From the IMG/VR virus record IMGVR_UViG_3300027917_000058, positions 1-52,168 of that record: a DNA stretch of 52,168 nucleotides. One strand, 5' to 3'. The stretch is from a virus (lineage: Duplodnaviria; Caudoviricetes). The notes below the pieces were generated by a model. The model did no database searches. It saw only the letters and a program-made list of their open reading frames with translations, and had not been told where the DNA came from. Positions within the stretch are counted from its first letter, which is position 1. Each line of letters begins with the position of its first letter. The translations under genes were made by a program, and so were the position numbers. Shown piece by piece: positions 2,477-21,337 of this stretch.

Positions 2477-3007
2477 ATGAGCGCGATGAAGAACCATCTT
2501 GCCGATCTGGACATGGAAGCCGACCGACTTCTGAAGCTGGTGCGGGACGATATGATCCTGATCGCCCGTGGGGACATGAAGTGGGCTCCGTCTGGACATC
2601 TGATGCGAGTACTGGCCCACAACCTGAAGCGACTTGCCGACGTTGTGGGTCAAGGTGGACTCCCCGATCCCTTCCCCGTCTTCCGGCACGGGGAAGAAGA
2701 CACGATTACAAGGGATCTGCTGGAAGCGTTGAAGCTGATGACGCAAGAATTTTCCCAGAAGTTTCGTGTGAAGAGGGACTTTCACAAGATGCTGGCAATG
2801 GAAGCTGCCAAGAAAGCGATTGCCAAGGCTGAAGACGTTGACGCCGATGGGAACGAACTCACGCCGGAACCCGTGGCGTTTCTTGAGAGTGCGTTGTCAT
2901 GTGAACCGAACGAGGCTGTCGATCTCCTGACAAACTACGGTCCTGCGGTGCTGGATCGGTGGTACGAGAACCACCCTGAAGCCACGCGTGGGCCAGAAGG
3001 TACTTGA
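2477..3007 (+). CDS. Hypothetical protein
   Basis: In-frame ATG at 2477 after GAAAGGAAAGAACG, within ORF 2429..3007. Confidence 0.65.
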   Translation: MSAMKNHLADLDMEADRLLKLVRDDMILIARGDMKWAPSGHLMRVLAHNLKRLADVVGQGGLPDPFPVFRHGEEDTITRDLLEALKLMTQEFSQKFRVKRDFHKMLAMEAAKKAIAKAEDVDADGNELTPEPVAFLESALSCEPNEAVDLLTNYGPAVLDRWYENHPEATRGPEGT

Positions 3008-3055
3008 TCCCTGCGGGTACTCATTCTGGGCGGGTACGCCCGAAAGGAAAGAACG

Positions 3056-3536
3056 ATGGCATACAGAACATCGAAGAACGGGGGGGCTCTACCGGAAATG
3101 CGGGGGCTGTACGGAGTGCTGTGTGAACCAACCGATCACGCAACTCGACAAACCCGCGAAGACCCCCTGCAAACATCTCACGGCAAGTGGTTGTGGGATC
3201 TACGAAGACCGCTTCCCCGTCTGCCGGGAATACGGATGCCTCTGGTTGTGGGGCGAAGGGAGCCTGGAAGACCGGCCCGACCGGATGGGCGCGATGCCAA
3301 CGATGTCTGACAACGGGTTGTATTTGACGCTATACCTCAACGGAGACTCGACCCCGGAACAGCTTTCCCGGGGAGCCCTGAAGTGGCTGAGACGGTACTT
3401 CAACAAGACGGGTAGGCCCGCCCTTGTACTTCATGGCGACGGGTACGGCAAAACCACGGCGATCTACCCTGACGGGACGTACAAGGAACTCGAAACCAAG
3501 TGGGTAGGAGAACTGCCCGGGAGCATGGAACCATGA
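3056..3536 (+). pseudogene. YkgJ-like (CxxCxxCC) cysteine-cluster protein, apparently frameshifted at a G7 run (3080-3086)
   Basis: CGGCTECC...C-HL...C-IYEDR..VCR motif lies in the 2988..3536 frame. The RBS-backed ATG at 3056 joins that frame only if one G is removed. Confidence 0.6.
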
Positions 3537-3772
3537 AAGCCGAAATGCCGAAAACGAAGCACGAAGTCATCGAACTCCTGAAGAGGCGGATTCAGGAATC
3601 CGGCCTGAGCGTGCGTCAGTTTGCAATCCAAGTGATGATTCGGGAAGATCGGACGGTACGCCGCTGGTTATCCGGCGAATCCCCAACTCCCAACGTGGTG
3701 TTGGGATGGCTCATGGAGCCCTACGCGCCACCCTGGCCGACCCGAAGGCGTAGGAAGGGGAGAAAGGTCTGA
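3533..3772 (+). CDS. Cro/XRE-like helix-turn-helix protein
   Basis: SGLSVRQFA...DRTVRRWLSGE-P pattern; ATGA overlap with the upstream stop. Confidence 0.7.
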   Translation: MKAEMPKTKHEVIELLKRRIQESGLSVRQFAIQVMIREDRTVRRWLSGESPTPNVVLGWLMEPYAPPWPTRRRRKGRKV

Positions 3773-3963
3773 TGCCTTGGTTTCTGAAGGTGACGCTAAC
3801 CCTGGCGACCCTGGGGACCACCGTACTTGTATCAAAGCGGGTTGTCGTGAAGTATTGGCGATGGGCGCGAACGAACGCTGAATCGTTCTCCATTTTCCTG
3901 TTCTATTTGGCAGGGGTTTGGTACCTCGCGCTACTCTGCCTCTTCGGAATCATGGCGTCCTGA
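3772..3963 (+). CDS. Small membrane protein
   Basis: Two hydrophobic segments; TGATG coupling to the upstream gene. Confidence 0.55.
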   Translation: MPWFLKVTLTLATLGTTVLVSKRVVVKYWRWARTNAESFSIFLFYLAGVWYLALLCLFGIMAS

Positions 3964-3970
3964 GATCCTG

Positions 3971-3996
3971 CCCGGGGGTACTTCGGTGCCCCCGGG
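3971..3996. terminator. Hairpin between convergent transcription units
   Basis: cccgggggtac-ttcg-gtgcccccggg, filling the gap between the + and - gene blocks. Confidence 0.7.
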
Positions 3997-4683
3997 TTAG
4001 TCTTCCCAAGCGTAACCGAATCGCTCCATTTCCGCCCCGTAGGTATCCTCAATCCACAACCGACAATCCGTTGGCAGGAAATCTTGATACCGTTCGTCCC
4101 GTGGCTTCGCCTTGGTATGGTGCTGGGATGCGCTCCGGTGGAACTCATCCGGCTTCAGGGGATTCAGTCCCTCTTTCCTGAGCATGGCATCCAGATCGTT
4201 CCTCAAGTGGGCGAAACGCAACTCCTGGCAAGTAGCAATCTCAAAGAACGCCGGGAAGAGGATATGTTTATTCCGATAAAGGGCGGGATGTTTCCAAACG
4301 TAATCGGTGAACCTTTCCGGGGACGGTTCCTTGCCGCCGAGAACCCCGCGACCGATAGAATGGAATACCTCGAAATGGTTCCGGTGGGCCGCGTAGAAAC
4401 GCCAGTTGTATAAATCCTCATTGAACCACCACCACAAGTCCCCGTGGCGTCCTGTCTGGGGATGCCTGGGGTTGTCCCCACCCCAAGGGACGCCGTGGTG
4501 CCCTAACCACCGCTCGAAACCCCGGAGCTTCAGGACGTTGTAACCAATCTCCCTACTCCCGGTCCTGGGGTCAGCAATGAAAGCAATCCGCTTCTCTTTG
4601 AGAATCCACATAATCTCGTTGTCAGGTGATTCGATCCGAACGCCGCCACCACCGTCCAGGCGGATAACCCTGACGGGGCTCAT
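3997..4683 (-). CDS. Sulfotransferase family 2-like protein (divergent)
   Basis: FIADPRTGS (cf. FIHIPKTG), RNH..VFHS (cf. RNP..R..S), RFAHL..D and C-terminal Y..EMERFGY. Confidence 0.55.
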   Translation of the reverse strand: MSPVRVIRLDGGGGVRIESPDNEIMWILKEKRIAFIADPRTGSREIGYNVLKLRGFERWLGHHGVPWGGDNPRHPQTGRHGDLWWWFNEDLYNWRFYAAHRNHFEVFHSIGRGVLGGKEPSPERFTDYVWKHPALYRNKHILFPAFFEIATCQELRFAHLRNDLDAMLRKEGLNPLKPDEFHRSASQHHTKAKPRDERYQDFLPTDCRLWIEDTYGAEMERFGYAWED

Positions 4684-10790: not shown

Positions 10791-11020
10791 GGTCTGACCC
10801 CTAGCGGACAGATAACGGAATACCATTCCATCTCGGGTTCGTCGGTCCAATTCAGCGGGCCGGAAATGACCCTACAAGCCCCTCGGGGAGGTCGGGCGTT
10901 GATCGGCTCCAGGGAGAGGTCCGTTGACGGCGGTAGGGGCTCCCAGCGGACTCCAATGATGAATCCAGCCATGATGCAACACAGGTATGCGAACAGGAGC
11001 GCCCCCCCCCGGGCTCTCAT
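10787..11020 (-). CDS. Small membrane-anchored hypothetical protein
   Basis: N-terminal hydrophobic helix; ATGA coupling at both ends. Confidence 0.5.
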   Translation of the reverse strand: MRARGGALLFAYLCCIMAGFIIGVRWEPLPPSTDLSLEPINARPPRGACRVISGPLNWTDEPEMEWYSVICPLGVRP

Positions 11021-11280
11021 AGCACTGGTGGCCGGTCGGGTCGGAGTTTCTTCAGGTTCTCCTCGACCTCCGAGATCCGCACCTTCACCTCGGGAAGGTC
11101 GTGGTCCTGAGAGACGACATATCCCTTGATGAAATGAAAGAATCTGTCCAACACCTCCAGCTTCTCTTCCACCTTGAGCGTGTAGGTGAGGTGATCGAGA
11201 TGGATTCTCTTATGAGAGTCGGTCAGCGGGATTGTGCCCCTTGTACCCAGGTTAACCCGCTCTCTCAACTTGTGGTTCAT
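11017..11280 (-). CDS. Hypothetical protein
   Basis: 87-aa ORF with overlapping start/stop in the operon. Confidence 0.55.
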   Translation of the reverse strand: MNHKLRERVNLGTRGTIPLTDSHKRIHLDHLTYTLKVEEKLEVLDRFFHFIKGYVVSQDHDLPEVKVRISEVEENLKKLRPDRPPVL

Positions 11281-11447
11281 GTCACATTCCCTTCCGCCTT
11301 GGCGCGTTCGTATATCTCGTCAATCTTCCACTGGAGCCGCCTCTGCGAGATCAGGACCCGCGCTGTTGCCCGTCCAGCACGGAAACCCTGCCCCCAAGCG
11401 TAGGCAAAGAGCTTCAGATTCCTCCAGAATCTCCTGATGGTTTCCAT
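11277..11447 (-). CDS. Small hypothetical protein (56 aa, below ORF-track cut-off)
   Basis: Read by hand as METIRRFWRNLKLFAYAWG...AEGNVT*; fills the gap with an ATGA overlap. Confidence 0.5.
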   Translation of the reverse strand: METIRRFWRNLKLFAYAWGQGFRAGRATARVLISQRRLQWKIDEIYERAKAEGNVT

Positions 11448-11448
11448 C

Positions 11449-11997
11449 TCAGAACTCCATGTCAGGTACCGGCCACTCCACCTCGTCGTAGAGAGCCGTC
11501 AGGTTGACCTTGGGGAGCGTCACGGCTCCCGGGAGCTTGTAGTGGTGGAGGCCCATCTGGAGGAGCCAAAGGGCATCTGCTTCATCGTGACTATTCCCTG
11601 CGTAACCCAGACGACGAATCGCCTCGCCCACCATCACGATCTTCGTCTCCCCCTTCTTATGGCCGCCCTTTCCGCTGGCGAACTTCTTCAGCTTCGAAGG
11701 TGGCACCTCAACCAAAGGGATCTTTCCCTGATAGAACCCCAATCGGAGAACGCCACCAAGCTCCCCAATCTGGTGTGCCTTGAACCCCTTCGAAAAGGCG
11801 TAGCCCTCGATGATGACCACGTCACAATGGCTCGCCACACCCATGACTTTGGACAGGAGATCCCAGAGACGTTTCGGCCCCCGGTAGGATGACGTGATGA
11901 TCCCAGACTCCCAGCAGCTACCCAGGGCGGGCGCGGGATCGATGTTCCGCGCCCACCCCGTTGCCGTCAGCGATGGGTCAAATGCTGAAATCTTCAT
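11449..11997 (-). CDS. ruvC: RuvC-like Holliday junction resolvase
   Basis: AFDPSLTATGWA, VVIIEGY, ELGGVLRL, PSKLKKFASGKG and DEADAL contain the acidic catalytic residues. Confidence 0.9.
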   Translation of the reverse strand: MKISAFDPSLTATGWARNIDPAPALGSCWESGIITSSYRGPKRLWDLLSKVMGVASHCDVVIIEGYAFSKGFKAHQIGELGGVLRLGFYQGKIPLVEVPPSKLKKFASGKGGHKKGETKIVMVGEAIRRLGYAGNSHDEADALWLLQMGLHHYKLPGAVTLPKVNLTALYDEVEWPVPDMEF

Positions 11998-12452
11998 GCG
12001 ACGATCTTGGATACCCTGGCCTCTAGTTCAATGACCTCATCCTCCAACCCCAGGACTGCGGCGATGGAGCGGAGCCGTGCAATGGAAGCCTTGATTCTCC
12101 CTACCTCCGTCACCATCACGGCGCGAGCCTTGTCCAGATCATTCTGACAGGTAAGGATGCTGACGTACCCCTGCTCACGCTCACCAGCCCCCGGGTCCCG
12201 CACGTATGCGGGGGCCTTCAACACCCTGGTTTCCTCGACCACAACAAGGCTCACCTTACGAATGATCCTTCTGGCCTGATCGAGTCTATGCTGATGAGCA
12301 GCATGGGCGTCATCCCATTCAAACTCCCCGTGGAGTGGGCTGTCTGGGTCCTGGGCATCAGCGACAACGATCTCCGGGGTCAACGTCCCGTTCGCCCTGA
12401 GTAGGCCTTCCAAATGAGCGGCGATCATATCCCTCTTCGCTTCACCATTCAT
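11994..12452 (-). CDS. Conserved phage protein; putative accessory subunit of the RAMP/repeat-array system
   Basis: LTPEIVV..A.DPDSPLH..FEWDD..AA..HRL.QAR..IR motif; start overlaps the stop of the RAMP-like gene (TGATG). Confidence 0.75.
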   Translation of the reverse strand: MNGEAKRDMIAAHLEGLLRANGTLTPEIVVADAQDPDSPLHGEFEWDDAHAAHQHRLDQARRIIRKVSLVVVEETRVLKAPAYVRDPGAGEREQGYVSILTCQNDLDKARAVMVTEVGRIKASIARLRSIAAVLGLEDEVIELEARVSKIVA

Positions 12453-13228
12453 CAGGACGCCACCTTGAAGCCCCGACGCTTGACTTCAGCGTTGAAGAAC
12501 TCTAGCAGAGCTTCGGTTTCATGGTCGAAGGGCGTGGGGTTTTCCAGACCCGTATCCTGGGCCTCGCGTCCCCCCATCTTCTTAATCCTCGCGACCTCCG
12601 CATCCTCCTCCGCGTCAGCGATACGGAACTGACCGAAAGAGCCCTTCCCCTTCTCTGGCCGGTAGTCGCCAAGCCCTACCAGCATACCAGAAGCCGCGAT
12701 CAGTCTCGCGACCGTTTCAGCATTGAGGTTGGGGGTCACAAAACGAACGTGAAAGCGGGCACACCATTGGGGTAGAATTGCGCGAGTCCTGATGTCTGGC
12801 GCACGACTCTGTCCCGCCATTCGGACAACAGCCATGTGAAGCTGCGGCACTCCCCATACCGGCACCGTTGTCTCAACGACCTGCACCAGCCGCCCCAGCG
12901 CAGCCTTCGCCGCGCCGGGGACATCGACACCGGCTTGCATGATGCAGGATTTCACACCCCCACCGGGGAGGATCAAGCGTGTCTCAGCATCCTCCCCCGT
13001 CTCCCGATACACGCTGGCGCGGTACTCAGCAACGGGGTCATGCTTGAGGGTGTTTTCCTTCTCTGCGCGAGATTTCTTTTGTGATGGGAACAGTATTTCC
13101 TTCCGCACCTTCTCACTCATCGCGTTGAAGATGAGCGGGCTGGTGCCGACGATGTTTACCTCAAGGGTTTTTACCGTCAGTTCCAGAACGTCCATCGTCG
13201 TCGTATCCTTCTTCTTCTTAGCTGCCAT
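12452..13228 (-). CDS. Stand-alone RAMP/Cas7-like RNA-binding protein (Vipr-like)
   Basis: N-terminal strand V-IVGTSPL, LILPGGGVKSCI (cf. Cas7/Csm3 IPGS-lKG), RTRAILPQW and C-terminal G-rich loop GLGDYRPEKGKGSFGQF; AGGAG RBS. Confidence 0.75.
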   Translation of the reverse strand: MAAKKKKDTTTMDVLELTVKTLEVNIVGTSPLIFNAMSEKVRKEILFPSQKKSRAEKENTLKHDPVAEYRASVYRETGEDAETRLILPGGGVKSCIMQAGVDVPGAAKAALGRLVQVVETTVPVWGVPQLHMAVVRMAGQSRAPDIRTRAILPQWCARFHVRFVTPNLNAETVARLIAASGMLVGLGDYRPEKGKGSFGQFRIADAEEDAEVARIKKMGGREAQDTGLENPTPFDHETEALLEFFNAEVKRRGFKVAS

Positions 13229-13260
13229 TTTCCTAGCTCCTAGCGTTTGTGTGAAAAAAA

Positions 13261-13772
13261 TGCCATGCCGTGCCCACCCGATCCTTTCCCGGTTCGTCCA
13301 CTCCTTTCCCGGCCACTCCCAGACCGCCCCTCCAATCCGTTCCGTTCCACAATCGATCCCGGCCCTTCCGGTCCCATCATCCCTCGCCGTCCCACGCCAT
13401 CCACTCCGCGTCTGCGTTACCGATCCAGTGCGATCCTTCCAGTTCTAGCCTTTTCAGGCCACCCCCTTCCGTTCCTCGTCTGCGTTGCCACTCCTGTCCC
13501 TTCCAGGCCCAGGCGTCCCACGACCCCCCGCGACTGCGTTGCCTCTCCTCATCGCGCCACGCCATTCCCTTCCCGTCTGCTCCGCATCCCCGCCTCGCCG
13601 CTGTACTACTGCCCTTTCGCGCCAAGCCCTGTCAGACCACTCCTCGCCTGATCGTGCCACTCCCGTCTGAGTCTGCTTCGTCTTGCCTCGCCAAACCGCT
13701 CCCGATCACGCCCGCCCTTTCCCGGCCCCGTACAGCCTCTCCCCTCCGTTCCTTGCCTATCCCTGCCCAGAC
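13261..13772 (-). ncRNA. Pentamer-periodic (GGH-NN)n array; putative multi-unit guide RNA locus
   Basis: Plus strand parses as [DCC NN]n with 5-nt period. Anchors GTCTGC/GACTGC/GACCGC/TACTGC at 13322, 13410, 13478, 13532, 13575, 13607 and 13671. Ends in T7 on the minus strand (13254-13260). The repeat is seen; RNA status is inferred. Confidence 0.75.
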
Positions 13773-14537
13773 CTACTCTTCGTCTTCGAAGAGGGGAAGC
13801 TGATGTCGGTATGTAACCCGGGAACCGATCTCCACCACCCGCTGGAGTTCCATCATCTCGCGGAATACCCGGGGGCCGAAGATTACCGTCTCGTCGTAGA
13901 AGCCGGTGAAGTCTGGCTTCACCATTCTTCCATCACTCCCGACCTGACGGAGTTCGTGGTAGAGGGCGAAGACTCGCTGGAGAGGATTGAGTGTCTTCCA
14001 GTGGTGATAGTTGATCGCGACGGCAGCGACCTTCCCTTCCAGCAGGTATCGGACCCACAGCGGAAGGCTCTTGACGTTGCCCCTGACGGTCTTCCCGCCC
14101 TGGACCCACTTCGCCTTGTTCCTCCAAAGGAAGACAACGTCTCTGGGTGAGACGGTGATCCGCTTGCAGCCCTTCGCCAGAATCTCAGCCATCGAGTGAA
14201 GCCGGTCGGACTCACAGTACTCCTCGTCTTCCTTCCCGGGCCACTCCTCTGGCGGCGTGAATTGCGGGTGGACATCGATGAGTTGGATCAGACCGTTCAC
14301 CGTGGCGTCATGCCCCAGGATGTCAGCCTTCTTCAACTCCGTGTAAACCTCCTCCGCAGTCTTCTTGTCATCTGCGGACGGGGTGGGAGGGACGTACTCC
14401 GGTTGGTCGGGTTCGCCGTCTTCCTCCGGTGGGGCTCCGGTGTCCAGACCCTCTACTTCCGCTTCGACCCCTTCTGCCTCCCTGATCGCTACCTCGGCAA
14501 GGGTTTCCTCTTTGGATGCTGCAACTGTGACCGCCAT
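13773..14537 (-). CDS. Phage metallopeptidase-like domain protein with acidic N-terminus
   Basis: FLW...GKTVRG.VK, W..L...QR..ALYHELRQV and PDF.GF.DE...FG resemble the putative phage metallopeptidase family. Confidence 0.65.
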   Translation of the reverse strand: MAVTVAASKEETLAEVAIREAEGVEAEVEGLDTGAPPEEDGEPDQPEYVPPTPSADDKKTAEEVYTELKKADILGHDATVNGLIQLIDVHPQFTPPEEWPGKEDEEYCESDRLHSMAEILAKGCKRITVSPRDVVFLWRNKAKWVQGGKTVRGNVKSLPLWVRYLLEGKVAAVAINYHHWKTLNPLQRVFALYHELRQVGSDGRMVKPDFTGFYDETVIFGPRVFREMMELQRVVEIGSRVTYRHQLPLFEDEE

Positions 14538-14556
14538 TGTTCGAACTCCTCGTCTG

Positions 14557-14739
14557 TTAAAGAAAAGATGGGCTTGATCCGGTCAACCGCCCTACCGCTC
14601 TCTTGATCGTGATGACACGAGCCATGAGATCGCGATCAATCCATTGCCGCAGAACCCATCGCTTGATGCGTCTGGACGGCAGCGGAGTGGGGGATGACCG
14701 GCGCGGTGGCTCAGTCCGCGTATCGATGACGGGCACCAT
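14557..14739 (-). CDS. Small hypothetical protein
   Basis: ATG with upstream AAGGG; fills the gap. Confidence 0.3.
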   Translation of the reverse strand: MVPVIDTRTEPPRRSSPTPLPSRRIKRWVLRQWIDRDLMARVITIKRAVGRLTGSSPSFL

Positions 14740-14755
14740 CCCTTTCTGGCCTCGC

Positions 14756-15142
14756 TCAACCCCCCACCAGCTTCTCACGTTTCTCCCTCCTCCTGGCTTC
14801 CTCGATCCGTCGCCGGTTCTCCCCTGGGCTAGATCGTGGCGGCTGATGCCGGTGGGGCTTCCCACACATGATGTCCAGGGCAACGAGTTGTCCGTTGTAG
14901 TTGGTGGTGAACCTGATCGGGTCCCCGCATTGATGGCAGATCGAGCGACCGTTCGCCGTATCATGGCCCTTGTATTTCTGGACGTGCTTGACGGTCGCGG
15001 GCGTGGGCTTGCCCTTTCGGTCGTCTATCTTCCCAATCCCACGGTCCCTCCCGACGACACCCTTCGTCAGGTCCGTTCTCGGCCCCCTCCGCTTCTTCCC
15101 CTCGTATTCGTCATCAGATAGAAGGTGCTTCCATTTCGGCAT
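14756..15142 (-). CDS. Basic hypothetical protein with CxxC...C..H Zn-finger
   Basis: CHQCGDPIRF...ALD...PH pattern; GGAGGG RBS. Confidence 0.6.
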   Translation of the reverse strand: MPKWKHLLSDDEYEGKKRRGPRTDLTKGVVGRDRGIGKIDDRKGKPTPATVKHVQKYKGHDTANGRSICHQCGDPIRFTTNYNGQLVALDIMCGKPHRHQPPRSSPGENRRRIEEARRREKREKLVGG

Positions 15143-15196
15143 CTCACCCTCCTTCCTGTGGGTGGCGGTCAGCTTCCACGATACGCCGGTCCTCCA

Positions 15197-15412
15197 TCAT
15201 TCTTTGGCATCGGTGTCCTCCGGTGGCGCATAGTCCGCTTTCCACGATTTCCCGCATTTCGTACAGACGCCATATCCGTGAGGCGCTCCGTGGTCCCAAG
15301 TCTCGACAACCATGTAGCGACACTGAGGGTTCTGGCACGGTGCGCTCCGACGATAGACGATGGCGCTTTCCCATTCGCCGTAGAGGTGGCGTTGGTCTGT
15401 CAGGTCACTCAT
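15197..15412 (-). CDS. Small Zn-ribbon protein
   Basis: CQNPQC...CTKCG; ATGA overlap. Confidence 0.5.
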   Translation of the reverse strand: MSDLTDQRHLYGEWESAIVYRRSAPCQNPQCRYMVVETWDHGAPHGYGVCTKCGKSWKADYAPPEDTDAKE

Positions 15413-15705
15413 CGTCGGCCACCGTGTTTGAAGTGTTCGTGGCTATCCCTTACACCTATACCTATGGCCAAGATGCCACCAATTCCCTGAAGTCCAACCA
15501 ACGGATATAGGGGTGCGAGGTAGAGGGCGCGAATTTGAATACCCTCGTCATTTTCTAGGTGAATCGGGTATGATCGTGTCAGTCGCCACTCCTGATCCCC
15601 TCGCCACCTGTACCGCCACGCCACCGGCTCCTCTTCATCTCCGGCTTTCCGGCGTCCATCTTCGTCCTCCAAGATTTCCAACTCCACCGCCGGATCAAAC
15701 TTCAT
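15409..15705 (-). CDS. Hypothetical protein
   Basis: In-frame ATG (MKFDPAVELE) within ORF 15409..15975; PVAWRYR motif common in phage proteins. Confidence 0.5.
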   Translation of the reverse strand: MKFDPAVELEILEDEDGRRKAGDEEEPVAWRYRWRGDQEWRLTRSYPIHLENDEGIQIRALYLAPLYPLVGLQGIGGILAIGIGVRDSHEHFKHGGRR

Positions 15706-16027
15706 CGTCGGCCTTCTTTCTCGTTCTGGTCTGGACAAGCACACTCGCGAGATCATCCCAAAAGCCGTCCAGTTGTCTCTCACGAAGAAGCCGTGCGGCT
15801 TCTTCGTAGGGGATCCCCATGCGCTCAGAAAAGAACGCCGTGAACAGCCGCCGCGCCAGCTTCGGATAGCGGAGGGGCTTGGAGGCATCCCGGGCCAGGG
15901 AGATCGCAAGAATCGGCCCGTCCTGCTTCTGGACCCGCACCCACGCCTCACCATCCTCCCACCAGATGGCCCCATTCTTCGCCATGCCCATCGCGTACTT
16001 GGCTTCAGGCGGGTTCTTCTTCGACAT
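15695..16027 (-). CDS. Hypothetical protein
   Basis: ATG (MSKKNPP) preceded by GGAG. Confidence 0.5.
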   Translation of the reverse strand: MSKKNPPEAKYAMGMAKNGAIWWEDGEAWVRVQKQDGPILAISLARDASKPLRYPKLARRLFTAFFSERMGIPYEEAARLLRERQLDGFWDDLASVLVQTRTRKKADDEV

Positions 16028-17915: not shown

Positions 17916-19031
17916 TTAACCTCCCGCATGGGTGGCCCTGTGATCTTCAGCGAGTTTGCGTTCAAGGGCCTTCAGCACCTTTTCCAACAACTCACCGCCC
18001 TGCCCCAGCCCCTCCTCGATGAATTGTTCGGCTCGGGAATCGAGCAGATTCTTTTTTCTCGCGACATCCCGAAGCTCAAGGACCATCGCCCCCAACTCTA
18101 TGTCGCCATCGTCATCATCGTCAGATTCCTCCACAGGCGCGTCCTGGCGGGGCTCAGGCTCCCCAACCGGCTTCAGCCCTTCCACCACCTCGTCCAGAGC
18201 CTCCTGGGTCGCCACAGAGGCATCTAGCTCTTTTGGCGGGGAGAACTCGTCAGCGATCTCACCCGCCTCCTCCTCGTCCATCCGATCGAGTTCCGCCTGG
18301 GACTGACCAGCAGTCAGCATCAGTCGCTCCCGGATCGCGCCCAACCGTTCCTTCGCCTCGGCCATATGGAGAGCGGCACGCTCATAGTTCATGTCGAGAA
18401 CGAGTGCGACCTTCCAAGATTTCCCGACCTTATCCTTCCCGTCCAGCGTGTACTGATCCTCGCTCTGGTAGCACATCAGCTTGACGGGTGCCTGATATAG
18501 GGTGCCGAAGGTGGCGTAGAAATCTTCCAGTGCCGTCTGGATGTTGTTCGTACTCTCCCAGCTTCGGGTACGGAAGACGTATCTGCCGCCGAAGTGTGGA
18601 CTCGCCACAAGCTGGACCTGAAGGCGGGTATAGGGTCGGCACTTGCAGGTACCCCCCTGGACTCGGGCACATGGAGATTCCTTGCCATGCGCGTTCCGCT
18701 GGATCTCGCCGTCGCAGATGACCTTCGGCTTTCGGCCAGCGTACTCGGCCATCACCGTCATCAGATTTTGCTCGATCTCCGGGTACATAAGAATCGCTGA
18801 AAGCTCCCGGGGTTCGTCGCCAACAACAGCATGGACCGCCTCATCCCTTACGAACGCGCCATCGGCCCCATCACGGGCGCGAGTGACCACCTCGAAATGA
18901 TCGAAGCGTTCGGGTTGGAACATATCCGACCCGCCCGATGTCCTCTTCTTCTTCCCGCGCCCCCCCAGCTTAATCTTGCCGATCTCCTGTGGGCGGTGAT
19001 CCATGAATGTTCGTTTGATGAGCGGGCTCAT
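17916..19031 (-). CDS. Gp3-like ('recombination directionality factor-like') phage protein, probable annealing/recombination function
   Basis: GKIKLG, P..FDHF, P.EL...L, CDGE, C.C.PYTRL and GG.YVFRTRSW motifs; acidic tail; lies in the YqaJ module. Confidence 0.65.
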   Translation of the reverse strand: MSPLIKRTFMDHRPQEIGKIKLGGRGKKKRTSGGSDMFQPERFDHFEVVTRARDGADGAFVRDEAVHAVVGDEPRELSAILMYPEIEQNLMTVMAEYAGRKPKVICDGEIQRNAHGKESPCARVQGGTCKCRPYTRLQVQLVASPHFGGRYVFRTRSWESTNNIQTALEDFYATFGTLYQAPVKLMCYQSEDQYTLDGKDKVGKSWKVALVLDMNYERAALHMAEAKERLGAIRERLMLTAGQSQAELDRMDEEEAGEIADEFSPPKELDASVATQEALDEVVEGLKPVGEPEPRQDAPVEESDDDDDGDIELGAMVLELRDVARKKNLLDSRAEQFIEEGLGQGGELLEKVLKALERKLAEDHRATHAGG

Positions 19032-19375
19032 GCGTCTACCCCCCCTTCTGACGTGTCCGTGAACATTTTGGACAGCTTCACGGATTCGCTCAGAAGTCCA
19101 CCCACCAGGGTCCCCGGCAGGTCTTCTTCTACCTTTGCCGTTGCAGCCGTGAGCCGGTCCCATGCGTCCATAAACGCACGAGCAGCGACAAGGGCGGAAC
19201 GGAGGTGATTAGCCACCTTGACCAGATCCTCACGCAGCAATCCCTTCGCCTCCAGCACATCGGCGTCGAGTACTCCAAGATGATCGCTGATCGCACCATA
19301 CGTCGGCAAAACCGCATAGGCATCTAGAAACGCGATGATCTCGGTGGACACAGCCGTTGGTTCGTCCATCTTCAT
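19028..19375 (-). CDS. Hypothetical protein
   Basis: Coupled ORF in the operon. Confidence 0.55.
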   Translation of the reverse strand: MKMDEPTAVSTEIIAFLDAYAVLPTYGAISDHLGVLDADVLEAKGLLREDLVKVANHLRSALVAARAFMDAWDRLTAATAKVEEDLPGTLVGGLLSESVKLSKMFTDTSEGGVDA

Positions 19376-21136: not shown

Positions 21137-21337
21137 TCAGTTGTCGGAAGGATGCGAAACCCTTGCCCAATCGATTGCCTCTTTGGAGGAGAACCGAAGA
21201 GTCCCGCCAGCGGGACGGTAATGGGGCAAGGGATTTTCGCTGAGATTCATCCACCGATGGATGGTTTGGCGGCTGACTCCGAAGAACTTGCAGATGTCAG
21301 AGAGCCGCCAATCAAGCCTGATGTCAGGTTCGTTCAT
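21137..21337 (-). CDS. AlpA/excisionase-like HTH DNA-binding protein
   Basis: DICKFFGVSRQTIHRW...LP..R..GGTLRF....IDW; AGGAGG RBS. Confidence 0.8.
   Translation of the reverse strand: MNEPDIRLDWRLSDICKFFGVSRQTIHRWMNLSENPLPHYRPAGGTLRFSSKEAIDWARVSHPSDN

Follow-up and report, generated by a model that had tools for sequence, protein, structure and literature searches.

A putative VIPR locus in an integrase-less phage with a guide matching box II of tyrosine integrases

Described VIPR systems and the proteins of the locus

Systems termed VIPR (for Viral Interference Programmable Repeat) have been described in three 2026 bioRxiv preprints (10.64898/2026.04.26.720920, 10.64898/2026.04.26.720927, and 10.64898/2026.10.15.759431). 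A VIPR system comprises Vipr, which is a minimal RAMP protein, together with vrRNAs that contain 9-16 YNNGG repeats, for which the discovery paper also admits 'a related consensus' and NNNGG variants; the NN dinucleotides pair with double-stranded DNA, and one target base is skipped per repeat, usually the wobble position of a codon (10.64898/2026.04.26.720920). Cryo-EM placed one Vipr protomer on each repeat, with the two G residues held by the G-loop and the thumb and with formation of a gapped R-loop; in the system of phage SUSP1, the third-base pocket excludes purines, and the 3'-terminal repeat of the complex is flexible (10.64898/2026.04.26.720927). The SUSP1 system binds double-stranded DNA and silences from either strand, and seven VIPR types have been published (10.64898/2026.04.26.720920, 10.64898/2026.04.26.720927). 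One of the SUSP1 guides, vrRNA4, covers a stretch of six codons encoding part of the active site (catalytic serine) of the excision recombinase of F5 satellites, and this targeting immobilises the satellite (10.64898/2026.10.15.759431).

The window, i.e., the whole stretch of DNA analyzed here (52,168 nucleotides), is the record of a complete phage (CheckV 100%) of 52 kb with a lambda-like head module, which was obtained from a marine-sediment metagenome. The sequencing runs listed for the stretch were two DNA runs of a single study of such a metagenome, and no RNA run was among them. The preliminary description of this DNA had stated that the window encodes no integrase, and the statement holds: a search of the complete record for PF00589 gave no match at E ≤ 1. 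Two minus-strand genes occur in this phage record without its own integrase, one for a 415-aa protein with a Gp3-like recombination-directionality-factor domain (17916-19163; PF18897, E 2e-24) and one for a 66-aa protein with an HTH_17 domain (21137-21337; excisionase/AlpA-like). The sequence comparisons given below suggest that the locus at 11994-13774 is a VIPR system of this integrase-less phage.

The vipr gene (12452-13228, minus strand; phrog_4652) encodes a 258-aa protein with the G-loop GLGDYRPEKGKGSFGQF, to which no Pfam family was assigned. Its AF2 model had a pLDDT of 86.3. Foldseek against the PDB yielded 64 matches at E ≤ 0.001, headed by Csm3/Cas7 chains (E ~2e-5), and among the matches listed, all were CRISPR RAMP chains. 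The VIA-wide comparison gave a Z of 9.6 (rmsd 3.7, 156 aligned) against a Cmr subunit and of 9.1 against Csm3. The protein is predicted from its model to adopt the RAMP fold of Vipr proteins, which has an RRM core, a thumb, and a glycine-rich loop, and its G-loop residues G185, G187, D188, and R190 were invariant across 36 homologues.

The profile of these 36 homologues was aligned with the 195-aa protein agp039 of phage SUSP1 using hhalign (probability 95.7%, E 8.6e-9), and the alignment spanned 52 columns only, which contain a C-terminal strand, a helix, and the G-loop. The G-loops were paired as GLGDYR.. and GVGDWR.., with the common pattern GxGD[WY]R..FGxF. We took agp039 as the SUSP1 Vipr from its flanking NNGGT chains and not from published tables; the chain search of SUSP1 recovered four NNGGT chains flanking a pair of small minus-strand genes, one of them upstream and three downstream.

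Directly beside vipr, the candidate vipr-accessory (vap) gene (11994-12452, minus strand; phrog_15946) encodes a 152-aa protein. Among 120 vipr loci, 108 contained a vap homologue, which was directly downstream of vipr in 91. In the window, this candidate would be the adjacent accessory gene expected of a VIPR system. The AF2 model of the candidate vap product had a pLDDT of 92. Foldseek found nothing in the PDB at E ≤ 0.001, and the best VIA-wide matches (Z 5.5 over 66 residues, or helical hairpins) were not informative as to fold. BLASTP showed no similarity to agp038, an ORF that lies downstream of the vipr candidate in SUSP1 and that we took to be vap1, one of the published accessory genes vap1-6.

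The locus thus resembles VIPR systems in being phage-encoded, in its minimal two-gene operon with a RAMP-fold protein carrying the G-loop GxGD[WY]R, and in its gene-strand arrays of 9-16 pentamers, whose NN would be read with one base skipped at the wobble position and without a self-target. It differs from the SUSP1 system in the length of its Vipr (258 aa), which carries a C-terminal helical extension, and in its accessory protein. Class 1 CRISPR Cas7/Csm3 filaments are similar in fold (Foldseek E ~2e-5 to Csm3; VIA Z 9.6-8 to Cmr, Csm3, and Cas7-11), in having one protomer per guide period, and in thumb-induced base flipping. The period is five in VIPR and six in Class 1 CRISPR, with three guide bases sequestered and two pairing in VIPR, and unlike Class 1 CRISPR systems, the window has neither a CRISPR repeat-spacer array nor cas genes.

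The repeat array and related loci

The vrRNA array (13255-13774, 520 nt) is intergenic, lies between two minus-strand genes, and carries period-5 NN-GG-N repeats on the minus strand, i.e., in gene sense. The lag-5 autocorrelation (identity) was 0.44 in 13240-13780 versus 0.26 in the neighboring gene, and the eight strongest period-5 sliding windows of the entire 52-kb sequence were all within 13261-13780. Tandem Repeats Finder detected the array as fragments only. No Rfam family was found at gathering score in the window or at E ≤ 5 in 13100-13900, and blastn of 11000-16000 against phages gave no match. TRAP-like ring binding, a CsrA sponge, G-quadruplexes, iterons, and parS were considered as the identity of the array and rejected because the flanking protein is a predicted RAMP protein and the VIPR papers match.

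The gene-proximal vrRNA unit (13262-13321, minus strand) consists of 12 NN-GG-N pentamers (TG-GGA, GT-GGC, CG-GGA, AA-GGA, GT-GGA, CG-AAC, CG-GGA, AA-GGA, TC-GGG, TG-GGC, AC-GGC, and AT-GGC), of which all except CGAAC carry GG. On the plus strand, the same unit reads GCCAT GCCGT GCCCA CCCGA TCCTT TCCCG GTTCG TCCAC TCCTT TCCCG GCCAC TCCCA in 5-base steps from 13262, with CC at positions 2-3 in 11 of the 12 pentamers (the exception being GTTCG). The dinucleotides that had been listed for the plus strand (AT GT CA GA TT CG CG AC TT CG AC CA) were confirmed at pentamer positions 4-5, and, as had also been noted, no adjustment of the register was necessary, since the 5-base steps yield them without a shift. 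The target specified by the unit is ATxGTxCAxGAxTTxCGxCGxACxTTxCGxACxCA.

On the minus strand, the 5' edge of the unit directly follows GGGGC-GGTC (13330-13322). The GGTC boundary (13322-13325) belongs to the delimiter type GGCGGTC/GGCGGTA, which is also seen in related arrays; in these, GGTC is among the two boundaries used most often between units, occurring after 65 and before 47 of 574 chains. Directly after the last repeat, an A + T7 run (13254-13261, minus strand) may mark the end of the array transcript. A promoter/terminator scan found no terminator-like hairpin and a single promoter-like site at 13255-13227. As in the published vrRNAs, in which GGY is conserved and NN hypervariable, a unit of 12 repeats is present on the gene strand beside vipr. 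The third base is Y in only 23 of the 49 window repeats (A 21, C 21, G 5, T 2). Unlike in SUSP1, where the repeats are of the GGT type, A is as frequent as C at this position; the units of the window are arranged head to tail with the 4-nt GGTC boundary, and the ~40-nt structured tail of SUSP1 was not seen.

Well-formed units are found at the ends of the array, and the middle is more degenerate. The distal chain (13685-13769, minus strand) has 17 pentamers, 15 of them with GG, and no target was found for it. The middle contains chains of 9-11 pentamers, 7-8 of which carry GG, and these short degenerate runs are separated by a GCAGAC-type motif that occurs five times (13476-13680, minus strand; GGCAACGCAGAC, GGTAACGCAGAC, GGCAACGCAGTC, GGAGCAGAC, and AAGCAGACTCAGAC). 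Three copies conform to GGYAACGCAG(A/T)C. The motif was not seen in the related arrays inspected, which use GGCGGTC, GGCGGTA, or AGGC boundaries; it might represent a processing site or another type of unit end.

Besides at least 577 relatives in IMG/VR, the clade includes prophage-like loci from many bacterial phyla, and Vipr homologues were also found in phages of Mycobacterium, Gordonia, and Pseudomonas. In all four phage loci fetched, the strongest period-5 signal adjoined the homologue on the same strand and consisted of GGC-NN pentamers. Such arrays were located beside the Vipr homologue in cultured actinobacteriophages, among them Mycobacterium phage Saal (L003, 2560-2800) and Gordonia phage Ecliptus (L004, 3600-3830), and in the P. 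aeruginosa phage LESphi2 (L002, 2590-2910). The Saal units consist of 11 pentamers and GGCA, with a one-base register step between units. In Gordonia phage Pipp (L001, 3605-3874), the GGC-NN array is annotated as a hypothetical protein-coding gene (gene 43), which is probably spurious.

We surveyed 121 loci with a Vipr homologue, namely that of the window, 4 from phage records, 36 on genome contigs, and 80 on contigs of IMG/VR. Chains of at least seven NNGGN pentamers numbered 587 on the gene strand (113 of 121 loci) versus 10 on the opposite strand (5 loci). The third repeat base was C in 66%, T in 19%, A in 11%, and G in 4% of the repeats across the clade. Unit boundaries in the relatives were GGC-GGTC, GGC-GGTA, or a 4-nt A-GGC step. 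A length of 12 repeats was common (57 of 574 chains), and the mode was 10-11.

L041, which scored highest among the IMG/VR loci in tblastn with the window Vipr (49% identity), has GGA-type repeats in cleanly delimited units; A is the third base in most of its repeats (2769-4408), as it is in 21 of the 49 window repeats (13255-13774). As the SUSP1 pocket was reported to exclude purines and GGA is nevertheless frequent here, the sub-clade formed by the window and L041 may have a different third-base pocket. The frequency of GGA, which equals that of GGC (21 each of 49), could also be taken as a sign that the array is a decaying or non-functional remnant and the unit is out of use, as could the incomplete, interrupted chains in its middle. 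We find this scarcely credible: both genes, vipr and vap, are intact, none of the 36 homologues deviates in the G-loop, and the dinucleotide of the GG-less repeat (CGAAC) still agrees with the integrase target described below. GGA is regarded here as a feature of the clade and not of decay because the L041 units are of the GGA type and yet cleanly delimited.

Integrase box II as a probable target of the gene-proximal and other guides

Taken as codon positions 1 and 2, the dinucleotides of the gene-proximal unit had been decoded to [IM]V[HQ][DE][FL]RRT[FL]RT[HQ] in the preliminary description, with the HxxR box of tyrosine integrases as the proposed target. The decoding was correct when recomputed. 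The 10-dinucleotide core had 17 exact matches in the metagenome collection, and the proposed target is supported by 12 of them, which lie in codon phase in integrase-like ORFs reading ..[TR][VLP]HD[FL]RRTFRT[HQ]... The matched HxxR is presumably the catalytic His/Arg pair of box II of the tyrosine recombinases. PF00589 was above cut-off in all 13 ORFs tested, i.e., 11 of these 12 metagenome ORFs and two viral ones; the twelfth in-frame ORF (L250) was too short for the test.

The 12 integrase sites represent nine distinct sequences, which come from contigs of 49-69% GC, match the guide at 21-23 of 24 bases, and are of the ACGGTGCACGACTTCCGGCGGACCTTCCGGACGCAC type. Over these sites, codon positions 1 and 2 hardly varied (major-allele frequency 0.95 and 0.98, respectively), whereas position 3 did (0.66). 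Six metagenome loci matched the full guide at 23 of 24 read bases (96%), and in each of them the sole mismatch fell on the dinucleotide that the 3'-terminal repeat reads. This first target dinucleotide was missed by all 12 integrase matches, which have AC or CG instead of AT. No tRNA was found within the 12 short integrase loci, and the other window guides had no target within ±600 nt around the integrase matches.

The remaining five core matches were outside ORFs and represent two distinct sequences; their number is about the chance expectation for 20 specified bases, with the size of the collection being our own estimate. Four metagenome contigs (L242, L246, L247, and L254) carry the same site (GAGGTTCAAGAATTGCGTCGCACATTTCGAACGCAT), which looks non-coding, has stops close by in that frame, matches the window guide at 22 of 24 bases and may be either a chance match or a non-genic target.

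A gapped-pattern search of the kind that had been proposed gave matches in the metagenome collection, as described above, and none in the genomes, where the full 12-dinucleotide pattern was found within three mismatches in 0 of 406. These were five genomes carrying related loci and 401 genomes taken as Alphaproteobacteria, the class of the MAG with the closest genomic relative. In IMG/VR, neither the full window pattern nor its last-10-dinucleotide core had an exact match. The backwards control of the 10-dinucleotide core also gave no exact match in IMG/VR, and therefore no collection offers a contrast between real and control patterns. Of the matches fetched from IMG/VR for the 7-dinucleotide core common to the window and L041, 43 of 80 were in-frame PF00589 ORFs, the best of which agreed with the window guide at 21 of 24 bases (L184).

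The expectation that the target belongs to a prophage, satellite, or ICE of the phage's host was not confirmed; neither the host nor such an element was found. The gapped, wobble-ignoring recognition that had been proposed for the unit corresponds to the '1-nt skip rule' published for VIPR, and the locus agreed with VIPR in the membership tests that were run (fold, homology to the SUSP1 protein, accessory gene, vrRNA, and target). As judged by sequence, targets of the published kind appear to exist for this guide, in that they follow the skip rule with at least 80% agreement of NN bases, the skipped base is the wobble position, and self-targets are absent. The best self-matches of the window guides comprised 59-78% of NN bases, which was equal to those of shuffled guides and below 80%.

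A genuine VIPR guide could decode to an integrase by coincidence, its true target being unsampled and HD[LF]RRTF ranking among the commonest conserved strings in mobile DNA. By our rough estimate, a random 24-base guide has about even odds of a 23/24 match in ~10^12 bases, the assumed size of the collection. Because of these even odds, the 23/24 match alone is not significant, and we placed the weight on codon phase, gene family, and recurrence. The failure in all 406 genomes, the first dinucleotide that never matches in the integrase sites, and the lack of a second window guide near the integrase matches are also compatible with coincidence. The first dinucleotide is, on the other hand, read by the 3'-terminal repeat, which was reported to be flexible in the SUSP1 complex (10.64898/2026.04.26.720927), and 12 of 17 exact matches share the codon phase and fall on a single catalytic motif of a single family, which a chance origin does not readily explain.

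Since a 23/24 match in ~10^12 bases is not improbable, the test was moved to guides other than those of the window, all of which were scanned with a dinucleotide-level pattern of box II, H-x-[LFIMV]-R-[HR]-[TSA]. Three further guides (L025, L041, and L043) matched, all in the same orientation as the window guide. When the NN order was shuffled within guides, the mean number of box II matches was 0.21, and none of 1000 shuffles reached three. The L043 guide decodes to GVTPHVLRHSFAALA, and its 10-dinucleotide core had 18 exact matches in IMG/VR, all 18 of which were in frame (TPHVLRHSFA) and all 18 of which had PF00589. These recurrences argue against coincidence, which we consider unlikely, and in favor of box II as the genuine target of the window guide.

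The other two guides decode to VVHD[FL]RRTAST[IM] (L041) and ..GLRFHD[FL]RHSF.. (L025). The L041 unit is identical to the window unit at NN positions 2 and 5-11 of 12 in the same register, and the difference falls where integrase subfamilies differ (..TASTL.. versus ..TFRTH..). The two units may share descent, and therefore the number of independent recurrences is two to three and not three. The full-length L041 pattern had no exact match in IMG/VR. For L025, there was no match within three mismatches in its own genome, and its 10-dinucleotide core had no exact match in IMG/VR. Decoding to box II was limited to 4 of about 550 unique guides. A comparison of the 550 unique guides with the fetched integrase-rich loci revealed no further integrase-targeting guides; the best site of the L025 guide there was box II (19/28), which is within the shuffle range.

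The preliminary description had also placed the RNA complementary to the integrase sense strand, and this is correct, since the guide strand is the minus strand. All four integrase-box guides have this polarity, and the unit might accordingly be an antisense RNA acting on integrase mRNA instead of DNA. Four of four corresponds, however, to a one-sided p of 0.06. In a codon-prefix likelihood analysis (a crude model) of 463 unique clade guides, about three quarters had the polarity of the target's coding strand and therefore could not pair with mRNA, which fits DNA targeting, and the SUSP1 system binds double-stranded DNA and silences from either strand (10.64898/2026.04.26.720920, 10.64898/2026.04.26.720927). 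We consider an antisense role very unlikely and DNA the probable target. The four integrase-box guides all belong to the minority, antisense polarity of the clade guides.

Proposed role of the locus and significance

We consider it probable that this complete phage without an integrase carries a VIPR locus, the gene-proximal guide of which reads integrase box II and silences the integrase of a competitor. By homology to SUSP1, the minus strand of 13255-13774 would be transcribed into vrRNAs, one Vipr protomer (12452-13228) would bind each GGN and present the neighboring NN, and the filament would pair with double-stranded DNA one NN at a time, with every third base of the target being skipped. 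As the sequence shows, the target specified by the guide is, in codon phase, the sense strand of ..[T]VHD[F/L]RRTFRTH.., i.e., of the tyrosine-recombinase box II with its catalytic His-x-x-Arg. By analogy with the targeting of a satellite by SUSP1, the phage would silence the integrase of a competing integrated element (a satellite, an island, or a prophage), and the element would therefore be unable to excise or integrate. Synonymous mutations would be ineffective as an escape route, and non-synonymous ones would strike the active site.

The window guide resembles SUSP1 vrRNA4 in that it reads codon positions 1-2 encoding a recombinase active site, with the wobble positions being the variable ones. 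The gene targeted by vrRNA4 encodes a 506-aa recombinase that has a catalytic serine and belongs to a competing integrated element (the F5 satellite), the footprint is six codons, and the effect was shown experimentally (10.64898/2026.10.15.759431). By its sequence, the window guide would cover 11-12 codons of box II (HxxR) of tyrosine integrases, and a target in a competing element is suggested by the analogy.

The guide may further be aimed at a protein-family signature and not at one competitor, which would give a non-integrating phage a broad-spectrum block; we put this forward tentatively, leaning slightly against it. As only codon positions 1-2 of the catalytic box are read, one vrRNA covers many diverged integrase genes. 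If this is true, the excision and integration of P4-like islands, satellites, and prophages would be blocked in whatever host the phage meets, and VIPR systems would have converged on the active sites of serine and tyrosine recombinases as a general weak point.

The VIPR system, its gapped code, the wobble logic, and the targeting of recombinase active sites are already in print in the 2026 preprints. Three aspects appear to be new: the recurrent targeting of tyrosine-integrase box II by VIPR guides, a clade whose repeats are rich in GGA, contrary to the exclusion of purines reported for the SUSP1 pocket, and an accessory protein differing from the presumed SUSP1 vap1. The word 'tyrosine' is absent from the accessible text of 10.64898/2026.10.15.759431, the only paper in the library searched where vrRNA and integrase co-occur, and 'integrase' is absent from the main text of 10.64898/2026.04.26.720920; the supplements of the preprints may list such targets. 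'Integrase' is also absent from a language-model survey that mentions VIPR.

The locus and its relatives extend VIPR systems to a large clade that includes at least 577 IMG/VR relatives, prophage-like loci, and actinobacterial and Pseudomonas phages. The GGA-rich repeats predict a Vipr variant with a third-base pocket that accepts purines, which bears on the rules for reprogramming. With tyrosine recombinases, a second recombinase family would join the known VIPR targets. If confirmed, a single wobble-skipping guide would hold a whole enzyme family hostage at immutable residues, and targeting at the level of the enzyme family would be a testable general principle of the conflict between mobile elements.
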